Shown in pieces: positions 11,092-30,850 of a stretch of DNA of 34,640 nt. Below the pieces are notes generated by a model. The model was not told the DNA's origin. It saw nothing but the letters and a program-made list of their open reading frames with translations, and ran no database searches. Position numbers and translations under genes: made by a program. The stretch's first letter is position 1; each line of letters begins with the position of its first letter. This DNA is from a virus (taxonomy: Duplodnaviria; Heunggongvirae; Uroviricota; Caudoviricetes). The stretch is taken from IMG/VR virus record IMGVR_UViG_2877285697_000008, positions 1 through 34,640 of that record. One strand, written 5' to 3'.

Positions 11092-11753
11092 GCTCCTACA
11101 TCAAAACCACTGATGAATTCGTTATCCATATCAAAACCAAAAAATTTTGAGCCTTCCGATGGGGTTTCCACCGAAGGTGTTTCAATGCCACCCGCCCATA
11201 CCCCGGCGGCTTTTACTGTGAGATACCCCTGTTTAATTGCCGCAATTAACTCACACGATACATCTGAAATATCAGTATCAGGAAAGACCCAGACCGATAT
11301 CGTCATGTCCTGATTATCGACTATCTGCATTCGCAGCCCGGATCCTGCTGTTGCAGCGTCAAGAATTGCCGGAAGCGAATCATTCCGTCCATCCCAGTTA
11401 TTAATCGCAATCTTCGCTTTAAGAATGACACGATAAGTTTCATCGCTGAGGTACATGTATCCGGAATCAGGATCGTATGGTCCCTGCCATACCCCCTGAT
11501 CATATCCAAGCCCGTCGGTATCCCAGCTGAAATAGACACCTGAGATAGGCTGGCTGACAACACGGCTACGTCCGATCCACAATCCCAGAATGTCAAGTTG
11601 CACACCAACCGCAGAGTCAATATCAAATGCAGTAATCAGCCCTCTGGTGGCAGCCGCAACATCAATAAGTGGCCGGGTCATCAGATCAACATGCGCAAGA
11701 AATTTAGGTTTGGTGGCGTGGTAGTTCGTGATTAGTTCGGTGTATTTGCTCAT
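11073..11753 (-). CDS. Baseplate protein (Mu gp48 / P2 gpI-like)
   Basis: 226-aa ORF in the conserved position between the J-like baseplate gene and the fiber gene. Confidence 0.65.
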   Translation of the reverse strand: MSKYTELITNYHATKPKFLAHVDLMTRPLIDVAAATRGLITAFDIDSAVGVQLDILGLWIGRSRVVSQPISGVYFSWDTDGLGYDQGVWQGPYDPDSGYMYLSDETYRVILKAKIAINNWDGRNDSLPAILDAATAGSGLRMQIVDNQDMTISVWVFPDTDISDVSCELIAAIKQGYLTVKAAGVWAGGIETPSVETPSEGSKFFGFDMDNEFISGFDVGAWGVLL

Positions 11754-12949
11754 GACTCCACCGTTATAACGATATTTTCCGGGGTACAGGACGCAGATTC
11801 GTTGTATCTGATATCAATGTTTGATGACGACAAAGCCCCCGGGGATTTCCCAATCGTCAGCTCCTGAATATCGTAATAGCGTGCATTCCCGCCACTCACC
11901 ACGCCAAGATTCGCCGGTGAGTAAATGCGACTTAAAAGGACCGAATCACCAATCGTCAGACTAATGATATAGTCGGAAATAACCTGCTGGATCTGCTGCC
12001 CTATCTGTGAGGTATAACCCGTAAAAACTTTTAATTTAATCCGGGCATAAACAGGCACATCACTGGAACGCGAGAATTTGATTACATGGGGATTGCCGTA
12101 TTTATCCGGAACCGTAACGGATGTTGTACCGTGAGTGGCTGTCCCCTGGCCTTTATTCCCTCTGATAGCCTGAGCAATATCCGTCACATCACCGCCATCC
12201 ACAATTACAGCAACAGAGTGTGGCGGTAACCCGTTACCGTCCTCCGAACCAGTATCGTTTTCATAGAGTTTGTGGCGGGTTACACCGGCAACATTAGAAA
12301 CAGCACCATCCAGTGCTTCAAATGGGGTTATTGATGGCAACGCAACACTTTGCGACTGGCGGATACGTAACTCAGCATCAGTTTCTGCCGGAGAGCCAAC
12401 AGTAGCCGCAGCAGGATTAATTACCGAAACCCAGCCACGGGTTGGCGTATTAATTTCAGTGATAGTTCCAGCCAGCGCCGCCACTGCACCACTGACGGAA
12501 CATCTTGCGGTCGCCATCACTGTACCATCCACACCGACCACCACTGACGCAGGCAAACGCCATATCACATTATTACCATCTTTCACGCTGCCATTAATGA
12601 TGGTTGTTCCGGCTGTTCCTGTAAGAAGCAAATCAACCGTAGAGTTCGTCGCGCCTTTACGTGAAATACCATTTATTTTCACGTTACTGGTCAGTGCAGC
12701 CCCATAGCCGGTTGCCGGTGAAAAACAGTTGTAGACAGTTATAGCCATATTATTGGCATCATGAATCGCCAGCGCCATCAGAGCCACCATCTGACCGTCT
12801 TTACTGTCCGGTTCGAGGTAGGCATCACTACCATAAATCTGCTGAAAATAGCTAATCAGGGTGCTGAGTATCGTCTGATAATCAGGCGCACTGATCCCCT
12901 CCGCGGTTACCTTTGCAGATAAACCGAGAGAATCAAGGTTCAGAGCCAT
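11750..12949 (-). CDS. Baseplate J-like protein (Mu gp47 / P2 gpJ-like)
   Basis: 399-aa ORF with 4-nt overlaps to neighbours; position and size match the baseplate wedge gene. Confidence 0.7.
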   Translation of the reverse strand: MALNLDSLGLSAKVTAEGISAPDYQTILSTLISYFQQIYGSDAYLEPDSKDGQMVALMALAIHDANNMAITVYNCFSPATGYGAALTSNVKINGISRKGATNSTVDLLLTGTAGTTIINGSVKDGNNVIWRLPASVVVGVDGTVMATARCSVSGAVAALAGTITEINTPTRGWVSVINPAAATVGSPAETDAELRIRQSQSVALPSITPFEALDGAVSNVAGVTRHKLYENDTGSEDGNGLPPHSVAVIVDGGDVTDIAQAIRGNKGQGTATHGTTSVTVPDKYGNPHVIKFSRSSDVPVYARIKLKVFTGYTSQIGQQIQQVISDYIISLTIGDSVLLSRIYSPANLGVVSGGNARYYDIQELTIGKSPGALSSSNIDIRYNESASCTPENIVITVES

Positions 12950-13302
12950 TACGCCTCCGATGTAACAGTCGTTATTCCATAGAGAGTGTCGATTTCAGTG
13001 GAAAACCTGACACGTCGGGTCGTGGTATCCACCGTAGTATTGAAAGAGAGGATTGATTTAACGCCCCGCGTTTCGAGGATGCGCTTACGGATCGCCAGGT
13101 TGTAGGTTTCCGGCTTCTGCTTACCGAGTACGGACTGGATCCACGGAGTCCCCTCGGTGGTGTCGAGAAACCATTGCCCATACCACAATTCGAATCGCGT
13201 TTTTACCGCCTGCGCCACGGCCTCCGGTGAGTTAATCAGCCAGGTGTCATCACCGCTGCCAAAGGTGTAATCGCCATCGGCGTCTTCACGTCTGTATCGC
13301 AT
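12949..13302 (-). CDS. Baseplate protein (Mu gp46 / P2 gpW-like)
   Basis: 117-aa ORF between the spike-like and J-like genes, translationally coupled on both sides. Confidence 0.6.
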   Translation of the reverse strand: MRYRREDADGDYTFGSGDDTWLINSPEAVAQAVKTRFELWYGQWFLDTTEGTPWIQSVLGKQKPETYNLAIRKRILETRGVKSILSFNTTVDTTTRRVRFSTEIDTLYGITTVTSEA

Positions 13303-14054
13303 CAGTTTACTCCGTCGGTATTGCTTCCACCGCGCTGAACACCACCATGAGTGTGCGTATCATCGATTGGCTTGCCGTTAGCCTTCACGCTACCCAAAAA
13401 CTCAACAGCACCAGTGATTTTTGAAGCCACACCAGAAACAACAGACCCCACCATGCCACCCATCCAGGTTAACAGGCCATGAATGGTTACTTTCTCAGAA
13501 AAATCAGCCAGAGGGGCAACCACATCAAGCCCCCCCGGAGCGACAATTTTAATTTTCCTAGTATCAGGATTAAGCTCAAAATAGGTACTGCCGTCGTCAC
13601 TACGCAACTGTGTGGCACTGGTATTAATACCGCTAATCTTCCTCGCCTGCGACTGGGGACCTACAATACAAAACGCATCCGATAAATCATGCATTCTGTC
13701 ATCAACCGGCTCCTGTATCCCGCCACTCTGCCACCAGAAATCAATACAACGATCGGCAAAAACGACAAGACACTCATCCCCGGCTTTTACCGGAAAAGTC
13801 AACGTACAGCCTCCGCCGCGCGGGAATACCACTGGCACATCCACCAGCAAGGGTAATGTCGTCGACTGGTTGATTCCATTTGAGTCTGGCTCATAGCCTT
13901 TAATCGCTGGTTGAACAACTACCGTTACCGTGTCCGGATCAAATGACTGGACGATGCCGGGCATAGAAACACGCAGCGCCGACATGACAGAGCCAGCAAG
14001 TCTTACATCGGCCTGTTCTTTGCTACCACGCTGAGCGCTTAAAGAAACTGGCAT
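13302..14054 (-). CDS. Baseplate spike/assembly protein (P2 gpV / Mu gp45-like)
   Basis: 250 aa with C-terminal ...GKPIDDTHTHGGVQRGGS (His-rich spike-tip-like motif); strong GGAGG RBS upstream of ATG at 14054. Confidence 0.7.
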   Translation of the reverse strand: MPVSLSAQRGSKEQADVRLAGSVMSALRVSMPGIVQSFDPDTVTVVVQPAIKGYEPDSNGINQSTTLPLLVDVPVVFPRGGGCTLTFPVKAGDECLVVFADRCIDFWWQSGGIQEPVDDRMHDLSDAFCIVGPQSQARKISGINTSATQLRSDDGSTYFELNPDTRKIKIVAPGGLDVVAPLADFSEKVTIHGLLTWMGGMVGSVVSGVASKITGAVEFLGSVKANGKPIDDTHTHGGVQRGGSNTDGVN

Positions 14055-14070
14055 TCATATGCCTCCAGAA

Positions 14071-14100
14071 AGCAAAAAACCCACTCGAAGGCGGGTTTTA
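14071..14100 (-). terminator. Putative intrinsic terminator downstream of the moron pair
   Basis: Hairpin AAAACCC.C-TCGAA-G.GGGTTTT (one mismatch) with the U-run on the minus strand, between the moron stop (14163) and the spike gene RBS. Confidence 0.4.
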
Positions 14101-14162
14101 TGTAGCTAGTTTTCTTTCCATGGTGATAGAAGCAATTACCGTGAAAAGTTAATTTAGCGAAC

Positions 14163-14504
14163 TCATTTCTTATTTTCAGATAGCACCAATCTACATTCTT
14201 CTTTTTTTAGAATCGTAAGAGATTGGCCACTATCGGAAAAAGAATAACCGCACTCGAAAGCGAGTTGACGCAGAGCTATTTCACCATAACTATCACCATG
14301 TTCTTTCATTAACTCATCACCAAAATCCGCCTCACGACCATTAGATACAGCGTCCATAGCCGCATTAGAAACAGCCCTATTTGTGATCTCTCTCTTGATG
14401 ATGTAGTTATCAGCCAGTGAGGTGTGCAGTCCAAAAAAATCATTCAGCGTTCCACCTACACAAATTGTTGGAGTCAACACTGCGAGAAGGAATATTTTCT
14501 TCAT
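14163..14504 (-). CDS. Uncharacterised small secreted protein (moron gene A)
   Basis: 113 aa; N-terminal signal peptide MKKIFLLAVLTPTICVGG (possible lipoprotein); AAGAGA-like RBS; lies in a ~700-bp AT-rich segment (roughly 38% GC by eye, against ~50% in flanks). Confidence 0.55.
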   Translation of the reverse strand: MKKIFLLAVLTPTICVGGTLNDFFGLHTSLADNYIIKREITNRAVSNAAMDAVSNGREADFGDELMKEHGDSYGEIALRQLAFECGYSFSDSGQSLTILKKEECRLVLSENKK

Positions 14505-14539
14505 TACAAATGTCTCTTATAGCTGATTTCTTAAAAAAA

Positions 14540-14782
14540 TTAATTACAGTACGTTGTGCCAGTATTGGTCGCCTGGCATTCACGATGTACTGCACTCCCA
14601 TTAATCGTTCCTGTGGTATACGTAGTACCTGTATTGGTTGTATAAGATTCTGTTTTAACTGTAGAACCACTACTGTCTGTACCAGTACAGTAAGTTGTTC
14701 CTGTATTTGAAGTGGTGCATGTTACCGCAGCCACAGAAGACAAAGTCACAAAATATACCAGTAATAAGATCCATTTAAGCAT
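14540..14782 (-). CDS. Uncharacterised small secreted Thr/Gly-rich repeat protein with 4 Cys (moron gene B)
   Basis: Signal peptide MLKWILLLVYFVTLSSVAA followed by three NTGTTY-type repeats. Likely ATG at 14780-14782 overlaps the upstream gene stop (ATGCTTAA), implying translational coupling; the track ORF starts 4 codons earlier at 14794. Confidence 0.5.
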   Translation of the reverse strand: MLKWILLLVYFVTLSSVAAVTCTTSNTGTTYCTGTDSSGSTVKTESYTTNTGTTYTTGTINGSAVHRECQATNTGTTYCN

Positions 14783-15815
14783 TTGGTACCCCACTTATTT
14801 TCGCTATCGTATCAGGAGTGAGTAAACTTTTACTCCCTTTAGCCAGGCAAAGCAGGTCCATATACCACGCCTGCCCTCGGGTGTCGCCAGTATAATCAAT
14901 GCTGCCCACAATGTAATCACCGTCAGTATTAATGCTGGCAGGCTGTGACATGCCTGGCAGACCGTTAACGTAGAGATTACCGTCGCTTTCAGACTCATCC
15001 AGTCGTGCTGGCGATTTCGCTACCTGGTCATTACTCAAAGAGGCACGGTATACAGATGCCTGATCCAGACGAATAAGCCCACCGAGCTTAATATTTGGAT
15101 TAATCAGACATCTGACATTTACGCCAGCTCCCATCGTCTGCTGTGGCATACTGATAAGCCCGGTGTTAGCATTCAACACCGTAGCAACACCAATATATTT
15201 ATCTTCAGGAACAATATTTACCAGATTATTTTCATACCACCAGTTAGCTTTACACTGCCCTGCGATATGATTCATCAACCTTGATGTGTTTTGATAAACA
15301 ACGCGACCTCGGGGAAATACCGTTTCAGGCATGTCAGGAACTGCACCGGATTCGATGCCATATGGTTCGAATGATTTCATACCCAGACTGAAAAGATCGC
15401 TGTACTTCCAGCCAGCAGCCACTGTGGTTTTCACTCTTGCGTTCAGGTGGCCTTCCCAGCTGTCAATACACTGCAACATGATCCAACTGTCTGTGGCATT
15501 ATCTTTACCAGTGACAGTAAAACGGATATCTCCATTGAATATCATACCAACGTTTTCATCAGGATAATTACCTGCTGCATCCGGTTGCCCCTTGTATCCG
15601 GCAATAACCTGTATACGCGAAAACTCCTTCTGCATAATCCGGTTCTGAGTGGTAGGAGACAGGTTATAAACCTTAAAATTTCCAACAAATCCATTAAATA
15701 TGGTCGCAGGCATTTTCTGAATATTGAAAGTGACTTTAAGCTCAGAAATTTTTATCCCGTCGCCCTTATCATCAACAAGCAATAATTCAAAGTGACGCAT
15801 CCAGTTTTTCGACAT
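14775..15815 (-). CDS. Tail/baseplate hub-like protein (Mu P / P2 gpD-like position)
   Basis: 346-aa ORF between the tape-measure region and the spike gene; assignment is by synteny and size, not a recognised motif. Confidence 0.5.
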   Translation of the reverse strand: MSKNWMRHFELLLVDDKGDGIKISELKVTFNIQKMPATIFNGFVGNFKVYNLSPTTQNRIMQKEFSRIQVIAGYKGQPDAAGNYPDENVGMIFNGDIRFTVTGKDNATDSWIMLQCIDSWEGHLNARVKTTVAAGWKYSDLFSLGMKSFEPYGIESGAVPDMPETVFPRGRVVYQNTSRLMNHIAGQCKANWWYENNLVNIVPEDKYIGVATVLNANTGLISMPQQTMGAGVNVRCLINPNIKLGGLIRLDQASVYRASLSNDQVAKSPARLDESESDGNLYVNGLPGMSQPASINTDGDYIVGSIDYTGDTRGQAWYMDLLCLAKGSKSLLTPDTIAKISGVPNA

Positions 15816-16123: not shown

Positions 16124-16774
16124 TCACCTTCCCAGAAATAAATTGCTCAAATACCCATCAACAGTGGAGATACCTTCTTGCGCCATCTGTGGCAGCGATT
16201 TCAGAATGGAATTATTCGGCGGCACCGTTGTTTTGGTGCCTGTATTCTGCACAGCAGACGTTCCGACTCCCTCGGTCATATTGTTTTTCGGGGCAACCCT
16301 GACTGACTGCGTGGAGATAATAATTACTTCCCTGAGGGTAAGTGTCGCCAGAAGCACATTTTCACTACTCTTATCGGTCGTGACCTCCAGCGTTTTTATC
16401 AACATATTGTTGTAAATACGCTTGCCGGTTGTCACATCGAAAGGAATACGATTCCGCTGCAGGTTAAGCAGTTCCTGATACAGTTCTTTCGGGCTCAGCC
16501 CCAGTAAACTGGTAGCAGTCAGGTTACTGGCAAAATCAAGCAGCGATCCGCCTCCGGAAAAACCGGTTTCCATCACAACCTCAGAAGGGCGCCTGAATGC
16601 GTGTTCTGATATGTAACCAGCGCCCTCACCACTGGCACCAGCATTCGTGGGCTGTTCAACCGGATGTTCCGTAATTTCCAAGGCGTCAGTGTGCTTTTCG
16701 GTAATAACCACATCAGGAATAATGATTCCTATTGAGCGGGTTCGCTGCTGCAGTAAAACAGATAAAAAGTCCAT
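16124..16774 (-). CDS. Tail protein downstream of tape measure (Mu N / DNA circulation-like position)
   Basis: 216-aa ORF whose start overlaps the tape-measure stop; assigned by synteny only. Confidence 0.45.
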   Translation of the reverse strand: MDFLSVLLQQRTRSIGIIIPDVVITEKHTDALEITEHPVEQPTNAGASGEGAGYISEHAFRRPSEVVMETGFSGGGSLLDFASNLTATSLLGLSPKELYQELLNLQRNRIPFDVTTGKRIYNNMLIKTLEVTTDKSSENVLLATLTLREVIIISTQSVRVAPKNNMTEGVGTSAVQNTGTKTTVPPNNSILKSLPQMAQEGISTVDGYLSNLFLGR

Positions 16775-17039
16775 TACGCAGGTCCTTTCAATTGCTGTAC
16801 CGCCCTGGCATTTACAGCCCCCTGCTTGTCAGCGATCAGATTAGCCGCCTCCTGAGGGTTGTTAACTCCATGAACATTTATAACAGTCTGCTGGTTAAGG
16901 TTGCCAGCGGCGGCCTGATACGCCAGCGGGCTGTTCCAGTTTGAATAACCTTCTTTGCGCGCCATCGACTGCATCAATGCTCCCATAGTCCGGGGATCTG
17001 TAAGATTCAATATTGCATTCGGTGGGTAATGACTCCAAC

Positions 17040-17543
17040 TTACTGATAGTGTTTTATGTTCAGATAATGCCCGATGACCTTGTCATGCAGCTCCACCGAT
17101 TTTGAGAACGACAGTGACTTCCGTCCCAGCCTTGCCAGATGTTGTCTCAGATTCAGATTATGTCGCTCAATGCGCTGAGTGTAACGCTTGCTGATAACGT
17201 GCAGCTTTCCCTTCAGGCGTGATTCATACAGCGGCCAGCCATCCGTCATCCATACCACGACCTCAAAGGCCGACAGCAGGCTCAGAAGACGCTCCAGTGT
17301 GGCCAGAGTGCGTTCACCGAAGACGTGCGCCACAACCGTCCTCCGTATCCTGTCATACGCGTAAAACAGCCAGCGCTGACGTGATTTAGCACCGACGTAG
17401 CCCCACTGTTCGTCCATTTCAGCGCAGACAATCACATCACTGCCCGGTTGTATGCGCGAGGTTACCGACTGCGGCCTGAGTTTTTTAAGTGACGTAAAAC
17501 CGTGTTGAGGCCAACGCCCATAATGCGTGCACTGGCGCGACAT
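17040..17543 (-). CDS. insB: IS1 InsB (made as InsAB' by -1 frameshift)
   Basis: 167-aa ORF overlapping insA, typical IS1 arrangement. Confidence 0.9.
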
Positions 17544-17737
17544 CCGACGCCATTCATGGCCATATCAATGATTTTCTGGTGCGTACCGGGCTGAGAGGCG
17601 GTGTAAGTGAACTGTAGTTGCCATGTTTTACGGCAATGAGAGCAGAGATAGCGCTGATGTCCGGCAGTGCTTTTGCCGTTACGCACCACGCCTTCAGTAG
17701 CGGAGCAGGAAGGACATCTGATGGAAATGGAAGCCAC
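17462..17737 (-). CDS. insA: IS1 InsA
   Basis: 91-aa zinc-finger/HTH protein [37 protein letters not shown]... Confidence 0.9.
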
Positions 17738-19680
17738 GCAAGCACCTTAAAATCACCATCATACACTAAATCAGTAAGTTGGCAGCATTACCCATTCGGT
17801 GATACTCCCATCCATTTCGCAACATCCTGTGCATACTTTTTCGGATCGTTGTTATCACCTGCCGGGGCCCAGGTACTGACAATATCCTGAATAGTCTGTA
17901 ATGCCCGTCCGGTTGTTTTCCCGGTAAAGTAACGCATGAGCTGGTTTTTCATCGCCTCCCAGCCCTCAAGAGCTGATTCGAAAAACCGGAACCCTTTACC
18001 GCTCACCGGGCGAATATTCCCTGGATTGTTATTCCGATCGGCTAAAGTACGCTTCGTAGACTGCGCATGTTGTTCCGGCTCAGCACCTGGAATATCTGAC
18101 TGAATATTTGCGCCTTTTACGGTATGAGGATTACGACCAAAATCGGTATCAATGCCAAGCCAGCGCAATGAATCTCCAATATTTTGTTTCGTGTAATCCC
18201 AGGATGACTTCGCACTGGCACCAATATTTTCGCGATCAGAGTACAAATACGCAGCATAAGCCATCCAGCCTTTTAACCACGGCGGGACCAGCAAACCTGA
18301 TATTTTCCCGAAAGCCCCCAGAACCTTGGATACCCAGACACCCGCGATGAATGTACCGAGGATTTCCAGTGCATTTTGCCAGCCGCCAACACCATCTTTT
18401 AGTTCCAGAAGGTGATCACGAAGCCAGGTGATCGCATCCTTCGCTTTATCTATTGCTGGTTGCCATTTTTCCCAGTCGATAAGACTGTTACCGCCTTCTT
18501 TCCATGTTTTGTAGTCTTCCCACAAGAGACCGAGAGCCACGATCAGACCGGTAATCAGCCCTATAGGTGACATCCAGAAAGTAGAGTTAAGTATCCGCAT
18601 GGCGACAACCAGACCGCCGATAACCTCTATCAGGGTTTTCGTTTCGGCATCCAGTTTCCCCCACCACTCGATGATATCTCCGACACCATCGACTATCCGG
18701 AATGCACCCCGCCCGACTATCTCACCCAGCCAGAGGATCCCCTTTATGACCTTTGTGATGGTGACTTCAATTTTGGGAAAATTTTCAATTATCTTTTTGC
18801 GCAGGTTATCAATCTGCCCCGCCAGTCCGTCCGCAAGATTCGATCCGATTTTGTCCCGCGCCATCCCGGCCATTTCACCGAGCGATTTCAGCGAGGTCAT
18901 AAACCGGTTTGACGATAAGGCAGCCTGATCGGCATTAAATCCGATCGCTTTCACCATTTCTGAATACTGAGCGCTGAACTGCCCCACTCCGCGACGCATA
19001 GCCATAAGGGTATTTTCGTCAATGCTCAGCATCTGCGCATACTGGTTAGCCCGGTAATACGGCATACCGCTGAGCTTCTGGCCTACACCAGTAAAAATAG
19101 CGGCCATGTCACGCATGTTACCGCTGGCATCACGGGTCTGTACGCCCAGGCGATTCAGAAAGCCTTCTGCACCGGGATTGTTACGAATAAACCGGGAGAG
19201 GCTTTCCAGAGAAGATCGCGCAGCGTCCACGCTGCCGCCAACCTGCGAAACCGCATAGCCAATAGACTGAATTCCCTGGACTGTCGCGCCGGTGCGCTGT
19301 GACGCCCAGTAAAGATTATCCAGACCGGAGGCGATCTTAGCCGTGAAGGCCACCACGGACAGCGCAGCTCCTTCAACAGCCAGCCCCATTTTGATGACAT
19401 TTGCAGTTGTACCGGCGAGGACAGAACCGAACTTTTTCGCTCCTGCATCATCCACACTGAAGCCAAGCGAGACGAGGAAATCTTTAATAGTCTCGGCGTT
19501 CATTATCCTCTCTCCATTTTTCTACCCGGACATCGTTGTCCTCGCACATATCAAGGTAGTCATTAAGAAGCGCGATGCGACAGAGATCTACCGCACCACT
19601 GTTAAGATCTTTCTGGTCAATATGGAAGGCAAGCGCCGGACGAAGAATAAAATCTTCACCACCCGGCAGGCTATTGAAGG

Positions 19681-23980: not shown

Positions 23981-25149
<1,169 letters not shown>

Positions 25150-26018: not shown

Positions 26019-27187
<1,169 letters not shown>

Positions 27188-28482: not shown

Positions 28483-28698
28483 ATGTATCAGATGGAAAAA
28501 ATATCAACAGGCATTGCCTACGGCACCTCCGCCGGCAGTGCCGGCTACTGGTTTTTGCAGTGGTTGGATCAGGTCAGTCCATCACAGTGGGCTGCGATTG
28601 GTGTGCTGGGAAGTCTGCTTCTGGGGCTTCTGACTTATCTGACGAATCTGTATTTCAAAATAAGAGAAGATAAGCGTAAGGCTGCGAGAGGTGAATAA
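28483..28698 (+). CDS. S: Class II holin / pinholin (phage 21 S21-like), dual-start motif
   Basis: 71 aa, [71 protein letters not shown], recalled as very close to phage 21 pinholin; Met1 and Met4 starts. Confidence 0.85.
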
Positions 28699-29195
28699 TG
28701 TCGCCATCATTACGCAAGGCTGTTGCAGTTGCTATTGGTGGCGGGGCTGTTGCTATAGCATCTGTGTTAATCACTGGCCCAGGTGGTAACGATGGTCTGG
28801 AAGGTGTCAGCTACATACCATACAAAGATATCATTGGTGTATGGACTGTATGTCACGGACACACCGGAAAAGACATCATGCCTGGTAAAACGTATACCGA
28901 AGCAGAATGCAAAGCTCTCCTGAATAAAGACCTTGCCACTGTCGCCAGACAAATTAACCCGTACATCAAAGTCGATATACCGGAAACAACGCGCGGCGCT
29001 CTTTACTCGTTCGTTTACAACGTGGGCGCTGGCAATTTCAGAACATCGACGCTTCTTCGCAAAATAAACCAGGGCGATATCAAAGGCGCATGTGACCAGC
29101 TACGTCGCTGGACATATGCTGGCGGTAAGCAATGGAAAGGGCTGATGACCCGTCGTGAGATTGAGCGTGAAGTCTGTTTGTGGGGGCAGCAATGA
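28698..29195 (+). CDS. R: SAR endolysin (T4-lysozyme-like muramidase, phage 21 R-like)
   Basis: 165 aa; N-terminal signal-anchor-release segment ([18 protein letters not shown]) followed by a Glu/Asp/Thr catalytic region; start overlaps the holin stop. Confidence 0.85.

Positions 29196-29681: not shown

Positions 29682-30850
<1,169 letters not shown>

Follow-up and report, generated by a model that had tools for sequence, protein, structure and literature searches.

A phage baseplate operon encoded in the viral record IMGVR_UViG_2877285697_000008 (Caudoviricetes) harbors an accessory slot between its hub and spike genes, with fixed borders, an obligatory first gene that encodes an exported protein and is coupled to the hub, and exchangeable cargo behind it. 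The record spans 34,640 nucleotides, and ‘the window’ refers to this entire stretch. Here, the slot—defined as the interval from the hub stop codon to a hairpin and T-run ahead of the spike—contains two small genes, B followed by A: A belongs to an optional cargo family, and B is a rarer occupant of the first position. A first-pass annotation, made from the sequence alone, had described the two as a single moron inserted into the operon. We compared the region with tail operons of Enterobacterales, 50 loci being fetched via the hub protein and others via A and B. All genes of the hub-spike region lie on the minus strand. The elements that define the slot and its occupants are as follows (a slash marks the predicted cleavage site, here and below).

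14775-15815, minus strand: baseplate hub gene, 346 amino acids (aa), left border of the slot (PF22759 E217_GP41, E=3.4e-7; phrog_196 ‘baseplate hub’, E=7e-79)
14540-14782, minus strand: gene B, 80 aa, first slot position (open reading frame, ORF, and conservation in relatives)
14726-14782, minus strand: predicted Sec signal peptide of B, MLKWILLLVYFVTLSSVAA / VTC (by inspection; A18 and an AxA-type site are conserved in relatives)
14163-14504, minus strand: gene A, 113 aa, optional second-position cargo (phrog_13007 profile match)
14070-14099, minus strand: terminator-like hairpin AAAACCCGCC-TTCGAG-TGGGTTTT with T-run, right border of the slot (9-pair stem; hairpin and T-run at 14099-14076; 24 nt upstream of the spike ATG)
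13302-14054, minus strand: central spike gene, 250 aa (PF18352 spike N-terminal domain, E=1e-44; PF18946 Apex motif; RefSeq name ‘membrane-puncturing spike protein’)

Whether hub and spike genes directly adjoin each other in related operons had been raised as a check on the insertion. They did so in none of 49 operons, where 346-2824 bp separate the two. The gene directly after the hub begins between −8 and +23 nt from the hub stop (median −1; overlapping it in 29 of 55 cases), and in all 55 loci its product has a signal peptide. This position-1 gene usually belongs to a family that we call C0 (phrog_3443, unknown function; members match the profile at E=3e-53), which comes first after the hub in most relatives (L001, L003 and loci in the range L010-L058). 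C0 comprises exported proteins of ~110 aa, with ~95 mature residues, two invariant cysteines and the motif QCG...ING...SQK...LNVQLLQ..MDAP...C. There is no copy in the window, and profile searches returned no Pfam, NCBIfam or PDB relative of the family. At four loci (L021, L022, L026 and L030), the position-1 protein is 288-379 aa long and begins with a lipobox-like signal peptide (for example, LVTGC or IVAGC); these versions, grouped with C0 by BLAST clustering, are possibly lipoprotein forms of the same function.

In a minority of loci, position 1 is held by B. It stands straight after the hub in all 11 viral-contig loci that contain it, over hub identities of 48-100%; at one further locus (L079), the hub is missing and B is represented by its 3’ end alone. 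Intact B and C0 never co-occur. In Hafnia psychrotolerans (L012, 6032-6394), B is immediately followed by the last 24 codons of C0 (NVEVVRVNMDEPRQFWTYDCVKVK and stop), a remnant that we read as the footprint of B replacing C0. That B is itself a diverged C0 was ruled out, since hhalign aligned no more than 24 columns, confined to the signal peptide and first cysteine, and a search of B against PHROGs, phrog_3443 included, gave no match. Occupancy by B or C0 showed no correlation with spike type.

Inspecting the distribution of A and B revealed them to be independent of each other. Of the first 49 operons, 11 contain A and 8 contain B, all under the source name ‘hypothetical’, so that neither is a structurally annotated component of most related operons. 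A occurs in five further contexts, each time within the slot; indeed, every context of A that was examined lies between hub and spike. B is found without A at five loci (L006, L012, L072, L078 and L080), and A without B, with C0 in B’s stead, at no fewer than ten (at least 10). Some slots have a sole occupant, namely C0 in L016, L033, L047 and L049 and B in L006, L072, L078 and L080. The occurrence of each gene without the other in several loci excludes a toxin/immunity or other obligate pair. Nor does the picture of a single two-gene insertion survive, and it should give way to one of two independent occupants of a conserved accessory slot. As for a moron being DNA added relative to related phages, A is found in 11 of the first 49 loci and missing from most, B takes the place of C0 instead of adding DNA, and no site among the 49 Enterobacterales operons is empty. 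The exact A protein was retrieved from 182 contigs, and the A/B cassette from 7 of 5,426 complete E. coli genomes.

Behind position 1, the cargo varies. Besides A, it includes a 136-aa secreted protein, Phd/Fic (L004, L005, L014), a YafO toxin pair (L034, L050), a secreted tRNA_anti-like protein and a T5orf172 protein, the latter corresponding to PD-Lambda-1 (E=1e-82; L043, L053); an Mrr-like nuclease is present in L025. With a known anti-phage gene, nucleases and toxin-antitoxin pairs among its cargo, the slot qualifies as a defense/accessory hotspot within a tail operon. A literature search for a hub-spike hotspot found no description.

The slot also differs from its surroundings in composition. 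Its GC content of 0.393 compares with 0.499 ± 0.032 across the structural module (214 windows of 720 bp; z = −3.3), the lowest of these windows (0.425) still exceeding it, and GC at third codon positions is 0.30 in B and 0.33 in A as against 0.43-0.48 in neighboring genes. This windowed profile bears out the earlier impression of DNA more AT-rich than the adjacent tail genes. The trend is general: in 49 of 49 relatives, GC content falls below that of hub and spike in the stretch between them. What remains of the first-pass proposal is supported, namely accessory, non-structural, AT-rich genes for exported proteins between hub and spike.

The right border is equally constant. No other site on the coding strand of the tail operon looks convincingly like a terminator. 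The hairpin and T-run have homologs in 39 of 39 related loci irrespective of cargo (ACCCGCC-loop-GGCGGG followed by T6-7), 15-25 nt before the spike ATG and just ahead of the spike ribosome-binding site. Four of the seven stem pairs differ on both sides with pairing retained. A hairpin terminator after gene A had been correctly spotted; being present whatever the cargo, however, it is a feature of the slot and probably not A’s own terminator. For a terminator to be conserved midway through a baseplate operon, there must be read-through, antitermination or attenuation; speculatively, it would be compatible with insulating the downstream late genes from cargo transcription, or with attenuation of the operon. 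An Rfam scan gave sub-threshold matches only.

B is a genuine gene, overlooked by gene-calling programs. RefSeq copies leave it unannotated, the Prokaryotic Genome Annotation Pipeline (PGAP) does not call it, and its exact sequence was not found in a collection of 15 billion proteins. Nevertheless, at least 18 loci keep the ORF at this position, the products being 54-100% identical in amino-acid sequence, with signal peptide, four cysteines and start coupling conserved, and a profile search of 1.84 billion representatives returned ~25 further small proteins of the same architecture. The ratio of nonsynonymous to synonymous substitution rates (dN/dS) is 0.63 against Salmonella and 0.14 against Hafnia. 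The ORF list begins B at an upstream GTG (14794); from its ATG the protein has 80 aa, and this ATG overlaps the hub stop as ATGCTTAA (14782-14775), the coupling to the structural operon that the first reading had noted. Likewise present are the three NTGTTY repeats and four cysteines (C22, C32, C69, C79) it had reported for a protein of ~80 aa. Distant members of the family (P0061-P0103) lie on phage-like contigs, for instance beside a Phage_T4_Y16F gene in L060. In E. coli FDAARGOS_943 (L068, locus positions 2071-3010), a copy of the insertion sequence (IS) IS1 cuts B after codon 76, with loss of the last cysteine; a second IS1 disrupts the hub, and A is intact.

A signal peptide of ~19 residues would leave a mature B of ~61 residues. 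An AlphaFold2 model (predicted local distance difference test, pLDDT, 72.8; ~80 in the mature part and 52-55 over residues 1-20) shows three beta-hairpins with an NTG motif at every tip and cysteine pairs flanking hairpins 1 and 3. The mature fold is thus predicted to be a flat three-hairpin sheet presenting one loop three times. Across the family, the nine-residue units are alike within a protein (0.67 identity) and divergent between proteins (0.34), within-protein identity being the higher in 20 of 21 members; examples are STDSWGTTR, YTDALGTTR and TTNSFGQTY, each present three times. In the B of the window, synonymous codon choice differs among the three NTGTTY units, and a search for DNA repeats of ≥12 nt found none, which excludes recent DNA duplication or gene conversion and argues that selection at the protein level keeps the units the same. 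Three like units suggest that B touches its partner in the same way three times, the partner being repetitive or three-fold symmetric.

A consists of a signal peptide of ~17 residues and a mature helical domain of ~96. It matches phrog_13007 (unknown function; E=1.9e-38) with residues 1-113 on profile positions 1-116 of 116, and its family comprises 56 relatives at the 90% cluster level, all from Enterobacterales and all named ‘hypothetical’. The dN/dS of A against Salmonella is 0.24. In the AlphaFold2 model (53 sequences; pLDDT 87.9), helices span residues 20-31, 34-54, 59-88 and 101-111; C85 and C104 are invariant across the family. A is accordingly predicted to be a periplasmic four-helix domain with two conserved cysteines. 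A literature search with its RefSeq accession found no paper.

By inspection, both N-termini combine a basic n-region, a hydrophobic core of 13-16 residues and small residues at −3/−1: A reads MKK, IFLLAVLTPTICV and CVG/G (VFA/G or ASA/G in relatives), and B reads MLK, WILLLVYFVTLSSV and VAA/V, with A18 invariant in relatives. This pattern is conserved in 53 relatives of A and ~25 of B, as are the cysteine pairs of the mature parts, so the signal peptides first called on the two ORFs stand. From these sequence features, A and B are predicted to be cleaved by signal peptidase I and to fold in the periplasm with disulfides. The suggestion that A might be a lipoprotein was not sustained. Its Cys15 lies in the context T-I-C, with Ile at −1, and does not fit the lipobox [LVI][ASTVI][GAS]C; moreover, the cysteine is missing in P0004, P0006, P0007 and most other relatives, whose sites VFA/G or ASA/G suit signal peptidase I. 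B contains no lipobox.

Neither protein had been recognized at first sight, and the searches for known families and folds agree. A and B gave nothing significant in Pfam or NCBIfam; PADLOC returned no match for A and only a chance-level Cas5d match for B (E=0.042); A, B and a distant B relative had no match in 50,697 phage records (megablast, tblastn); PDB sequence profiles yielded nothing significant for A, B or C0; and scans of profile libraries revealed no similarity of A or B to spanins, holins or antiholins. B as a PAAR-like spike tip was rejected, as it has a signal peptide and no Pfam match and the spike carries an Apex motif of its own. In E217, gp42 (L059:12595-13128) lies between the hub gp41 and the tail tip gp43 and is unmentioned in the virion structure paper; with 177 aa and no signal peptide, it was discarded as an analog of C0 or B.

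The remaining genes of the operon place the slot within a defined type of tail module.

16124-16774, minus strand: Dit-like tube initiator, first in transcription order here
between tube initiator and hub, minus strand: Pam3_gp18-type plug (annotation of the identical E. coli copy)
12949-13302, minus strand: phrog_120 ‘baseplate wedge subunit’ protein (the equivalent in related loci has PF10934 Sheath_initiator)
11750-12949, minus strand: Baseplate_J, last in the listed order

In Pam3, the order is gp17 tube initiator, gp18 plug, gp19 hub, gp20 spike, gp21 sheath initiator and gp22/23 wedge, hub and spike carrying consecutive gene numbers; the baseplate of this minimal myophage was fully modeled from six components, with no additional protein (PMC9942802). 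The Pfam order of the window operon agrees with that of Pam3, and gene order and Pfam assignments together identify the tail module as E217/Pam3/phiTE type. An SfV-like or Mu-like operon, as initially supposed, is not what the Pfam assignments specifically indicate. Considering the complete Pam3 baseplate alongside the signal peptides and cysteine pairs, we infer that A and B are periplasmic, disulfide-bonded and not virion components. From Baseplate_J into the spike (11750-13857), the window shares 97.6% nucleotide identity with four E. coli phages (including vB_EcoM-606R2, L001); the match ends within the 5’ part of the spike, indicating a mosaic breakpoint beside the slot.

The prophage in the window is defective, since IS1 (17040-17737) splits its tape-measure gene (16774-19503) into ORFs of 571 and 78 aa; A and B are nonetheless intact. 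The tape measure of E. coli FDAARGOS_944, a copy identical in other respects, is uninterrupted, with 650 aa, and annotated as a lytic transglycosylase. An ipaH-type NEL E3 ligase ORF (645-1811, plus strand) lies beside tail-fiber genes, and further IS copies (IS4-type, several IS3-family rve ORFs and IS1) are located at 3991-5337 (minus strand), 6682-7838 (minus strand), 24310-25149, 26019-26858 and 30011-30850. The ipaH-type ORF together with the many IS is the signature of a Shigella or enteroinvasive E. coli (EIEC) genome, and the window is an IS-rich prophage remnant.

As to function, analogy with known systems leads us to favor, tentatively, a role of A, B and the position-1 proteins in general in interfering at the envelope with phage entry or re-adsorption. 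A Sec-exported cysteine protein would be made from position 1 along with the hub by translational coupling, the slot of the window supplying B and then A. Once exported, A and B might oppose phage entry at the envelope of a cell that is infected or lysogenic, either on the periplasm-exposed tail tip (the trimeric spike or hub, or the tape measure with its transglycosylase domain) or on an envelope component that the tip needs. The three identical tips of B would suit a three-fold symmetric or repetitive target. Related superinfecting phages could thereby be excluded, and progeny would be spared wasteful injection into lysing cells.

Several observations weigh against this proposal. A and B resemble no known exclusion protein: the best PDB match of the A model in Foldseek had E=2.6 and a template modeling (TM) score of ~0.3, with nothing significant in BFVD, and the B model, itself of only moderate confidence (pLDDT 72.8, built from 5 sequences), found generic beta-meander matches in PDB (E≥0.27). 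The confinement of A to the slot could merely reflect exchange via flanking homology. The IS1 truncation suggests that B is dispensable for the E. coli FDAARGOS_943 host. A promoter search of the region returned none above chance, the number of sites falling below the shuffle expectation; one weak sigma-70-like site (9/12 matches) lies inside the hub gene (14917-14889). Finally, coupling to the hub implies expression with the late operon, which suits anti-readsorption better than classical exclusion by a resident prophage. Speculatively, hub coupling and the absence of a detected promoter point to late expression of position 1, and this would favor a role in the infected cell (anti-readsorption, self-exclusion) over classical lysogenic conversion. 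A bolder version, in which the position-1 gene represents a new class of core self-exclusion factor of simple contractile-tail phages, B a new three-finger fold and the slot, by virtue of its conserved terminator, a purpose-built expression site turned defense hotspot, strikes us as rather unlikely. In this version, the periplasmic product of position 1, made along with the hub, would bind the trimeric tail-tip complex of phages sharing the tail type, or the envelope target of that complex, and the three identical loop tips of B would engage a three-fold symmetric partner.

The same verdict applies to A and B as lysogenic-conversion or host-fitness factors, made from the repressed prophage and altering the envelope (stress or serum resistance, adhesion, colonization) with no role between phages. 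Lambda Bor and Lom are precedents for such envelope proteins. The AT-rich slot looks horizontally acquired, both proteins carry signal peptides, their ORFs have stayed intact in an IS-riddled defective prophage of an ipaH-bearing Shigella/EIEC-type genome, and the terminator insulates the late genes downstream. However, position 1 is filled in every relative across varied genera and ecologies, plant- and insect-associated ones included, which points to a phage-centered role. The start of B overlaps the hub stop, the promoter search gave nothing above chance, IS1 has truncated B in one strain, and the neighboring cargo consists of defense and toxin-antitoxin genes rather than virulence genes.

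In each of the 55 loci, the position-1 gene is translationally coupled to a structural gene of the late class. This coupling, the obligatory presence of the protein and its predicted periplasmic location would also be expected of a helper of lysis or egress, with C0 or B tuning envelope breakdown or lysis timing from the periplasm. We regard this as quite unlikely, given that the window encodes a lysozyme at another site (28698-29195, PF00959), that spanin, holin and antiholin similarity is lacking in the profile-library scans, and that C0 and B, although of unrelated folds, interchange—something more readily explained if the protein binds or blocks a target than if it belongs to a lysis machine. 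Very improbable is a virion or assembly component, in which B and/or A would be a small baseplate or spike-tip protein or chaperone, for example a PAAR-like cap, with an uncleaved N-terminus. The location between the genes of two mutually docking proteins, the three repeats of B, reminiscent of pseudo-threefold tips, and the universal filling of position 1 invite the idea; canonical signal peptides with AxA-type sites, conserved cysteine pairs, the Apex motif of the spike itself, the lack of PAAR or structural matches in Pfam and PHROGs, unrelated families at position 1 and a Pam3 baseplate of the same gene order that is complete without such a protein all oppose it. That B is a spurious ORF and A alone a gene is scarcely credible: a Thr/Gly-rich product left uncalled by PGAP, absent as an exact protein from the 15-billion collection and with a dN/dS of 0.63 against its closest relative might raise the suspicion, but it is answered by at least 18 loci at 54-100% identity with conserved cysteines, signal peptide and start coupling, by a dN/dS of 0.14 at larger distance and by the ~25 more distant relatives of the same architecture.

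Superinfection exclusion and host conversion are known to arise from accessory genes in the structural operons of phages, and few such genes have been characterized. The present slot is widespread in tail modules of Enterobacterales prophages (Escherichia/Shigella, Salmonella, Klebsiella, Serratia, Pantoea, Photorhabdus, Yersinia), and C0, A and B provide three uncharacterized exported families as testable candidates for phage-phage interference at the envelope. Its borders yield a simple rule for cargo mining: everything between the hub stop and ACCCGCC...GGCGGGTTTTTT. B illustrates how annotation pipelines can overlook a conserved 80-codon gene. If it is true that these proteins block the entry of phages with the same tail type, they would bear on host range in phage therapy and on prophage competition in enteric pathogens.

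Among known systems, the tail-operon moron gp15 of HK97 keeps other phages, and HK97 itself, from injecting their genomes, an effect that depends on the tail region of the phage (Juhala et al. 2000; Cumby et al. 2012; reviewed in PMC3594210, which also treats Cor). The likeness lies in a small, envelope-targeted tail-operon gene of deviant GC content that is flanked by a terminator and is not in the virion. Yet gp15 is a YebO-like inner-membrane protein with its own promoter, encoded between the tail chaperone and tape measure and absent in related phages, whereas A and B are predicted to be soluble and periplasmic and have no sequence relation to it, B is coupled to the hub, and the site is filled in all relatives. 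T5 Llp and the Cor lipoproteins of T1/phi80/N15 are encoded beside the phage’s own entry apparatus, mask an outer-membrane receptor and block the same phage type, protecting progeny from debris; Llp variants are receptor-specific. They resemble A and B as small exported proteins, and unrelated alternatives at one position would parallel the receptor-specific Llp variants; unlike these lipoproteins, A and B have no lipobox. T4 Spackle (Sp) is made with a signal peptide; in the periplasm, this helical protein of ~10 kDa inhibits the gp5 tail lysozyme of an incoming phage. A is likewise a small, predicted helical periplasmic protein, and a possible counterpart of the lysozyme exists in the tape measure, annotated as a lytic transglycosylase in FDAARGOS_944 and carrying PF01464 SLT in related loci; however, A and Spackle show no sequence or fold similarity, no Spackle entry being among the 47 Foldseek PDB matches of A. 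Lastly, Rousset and colleagues reportedly described, in 2022, accessory/defense hotspots of temperate phages, such as those of P2 and P4. The slot shares with these a fixed site between conserved phage genes and exchangeable defense and toxin-antitoxin cargo, and it differs from them in lying in the middle of a baseplate operon, with a first gene that always encodes an exported protein and a terminator that is likewise invariable.

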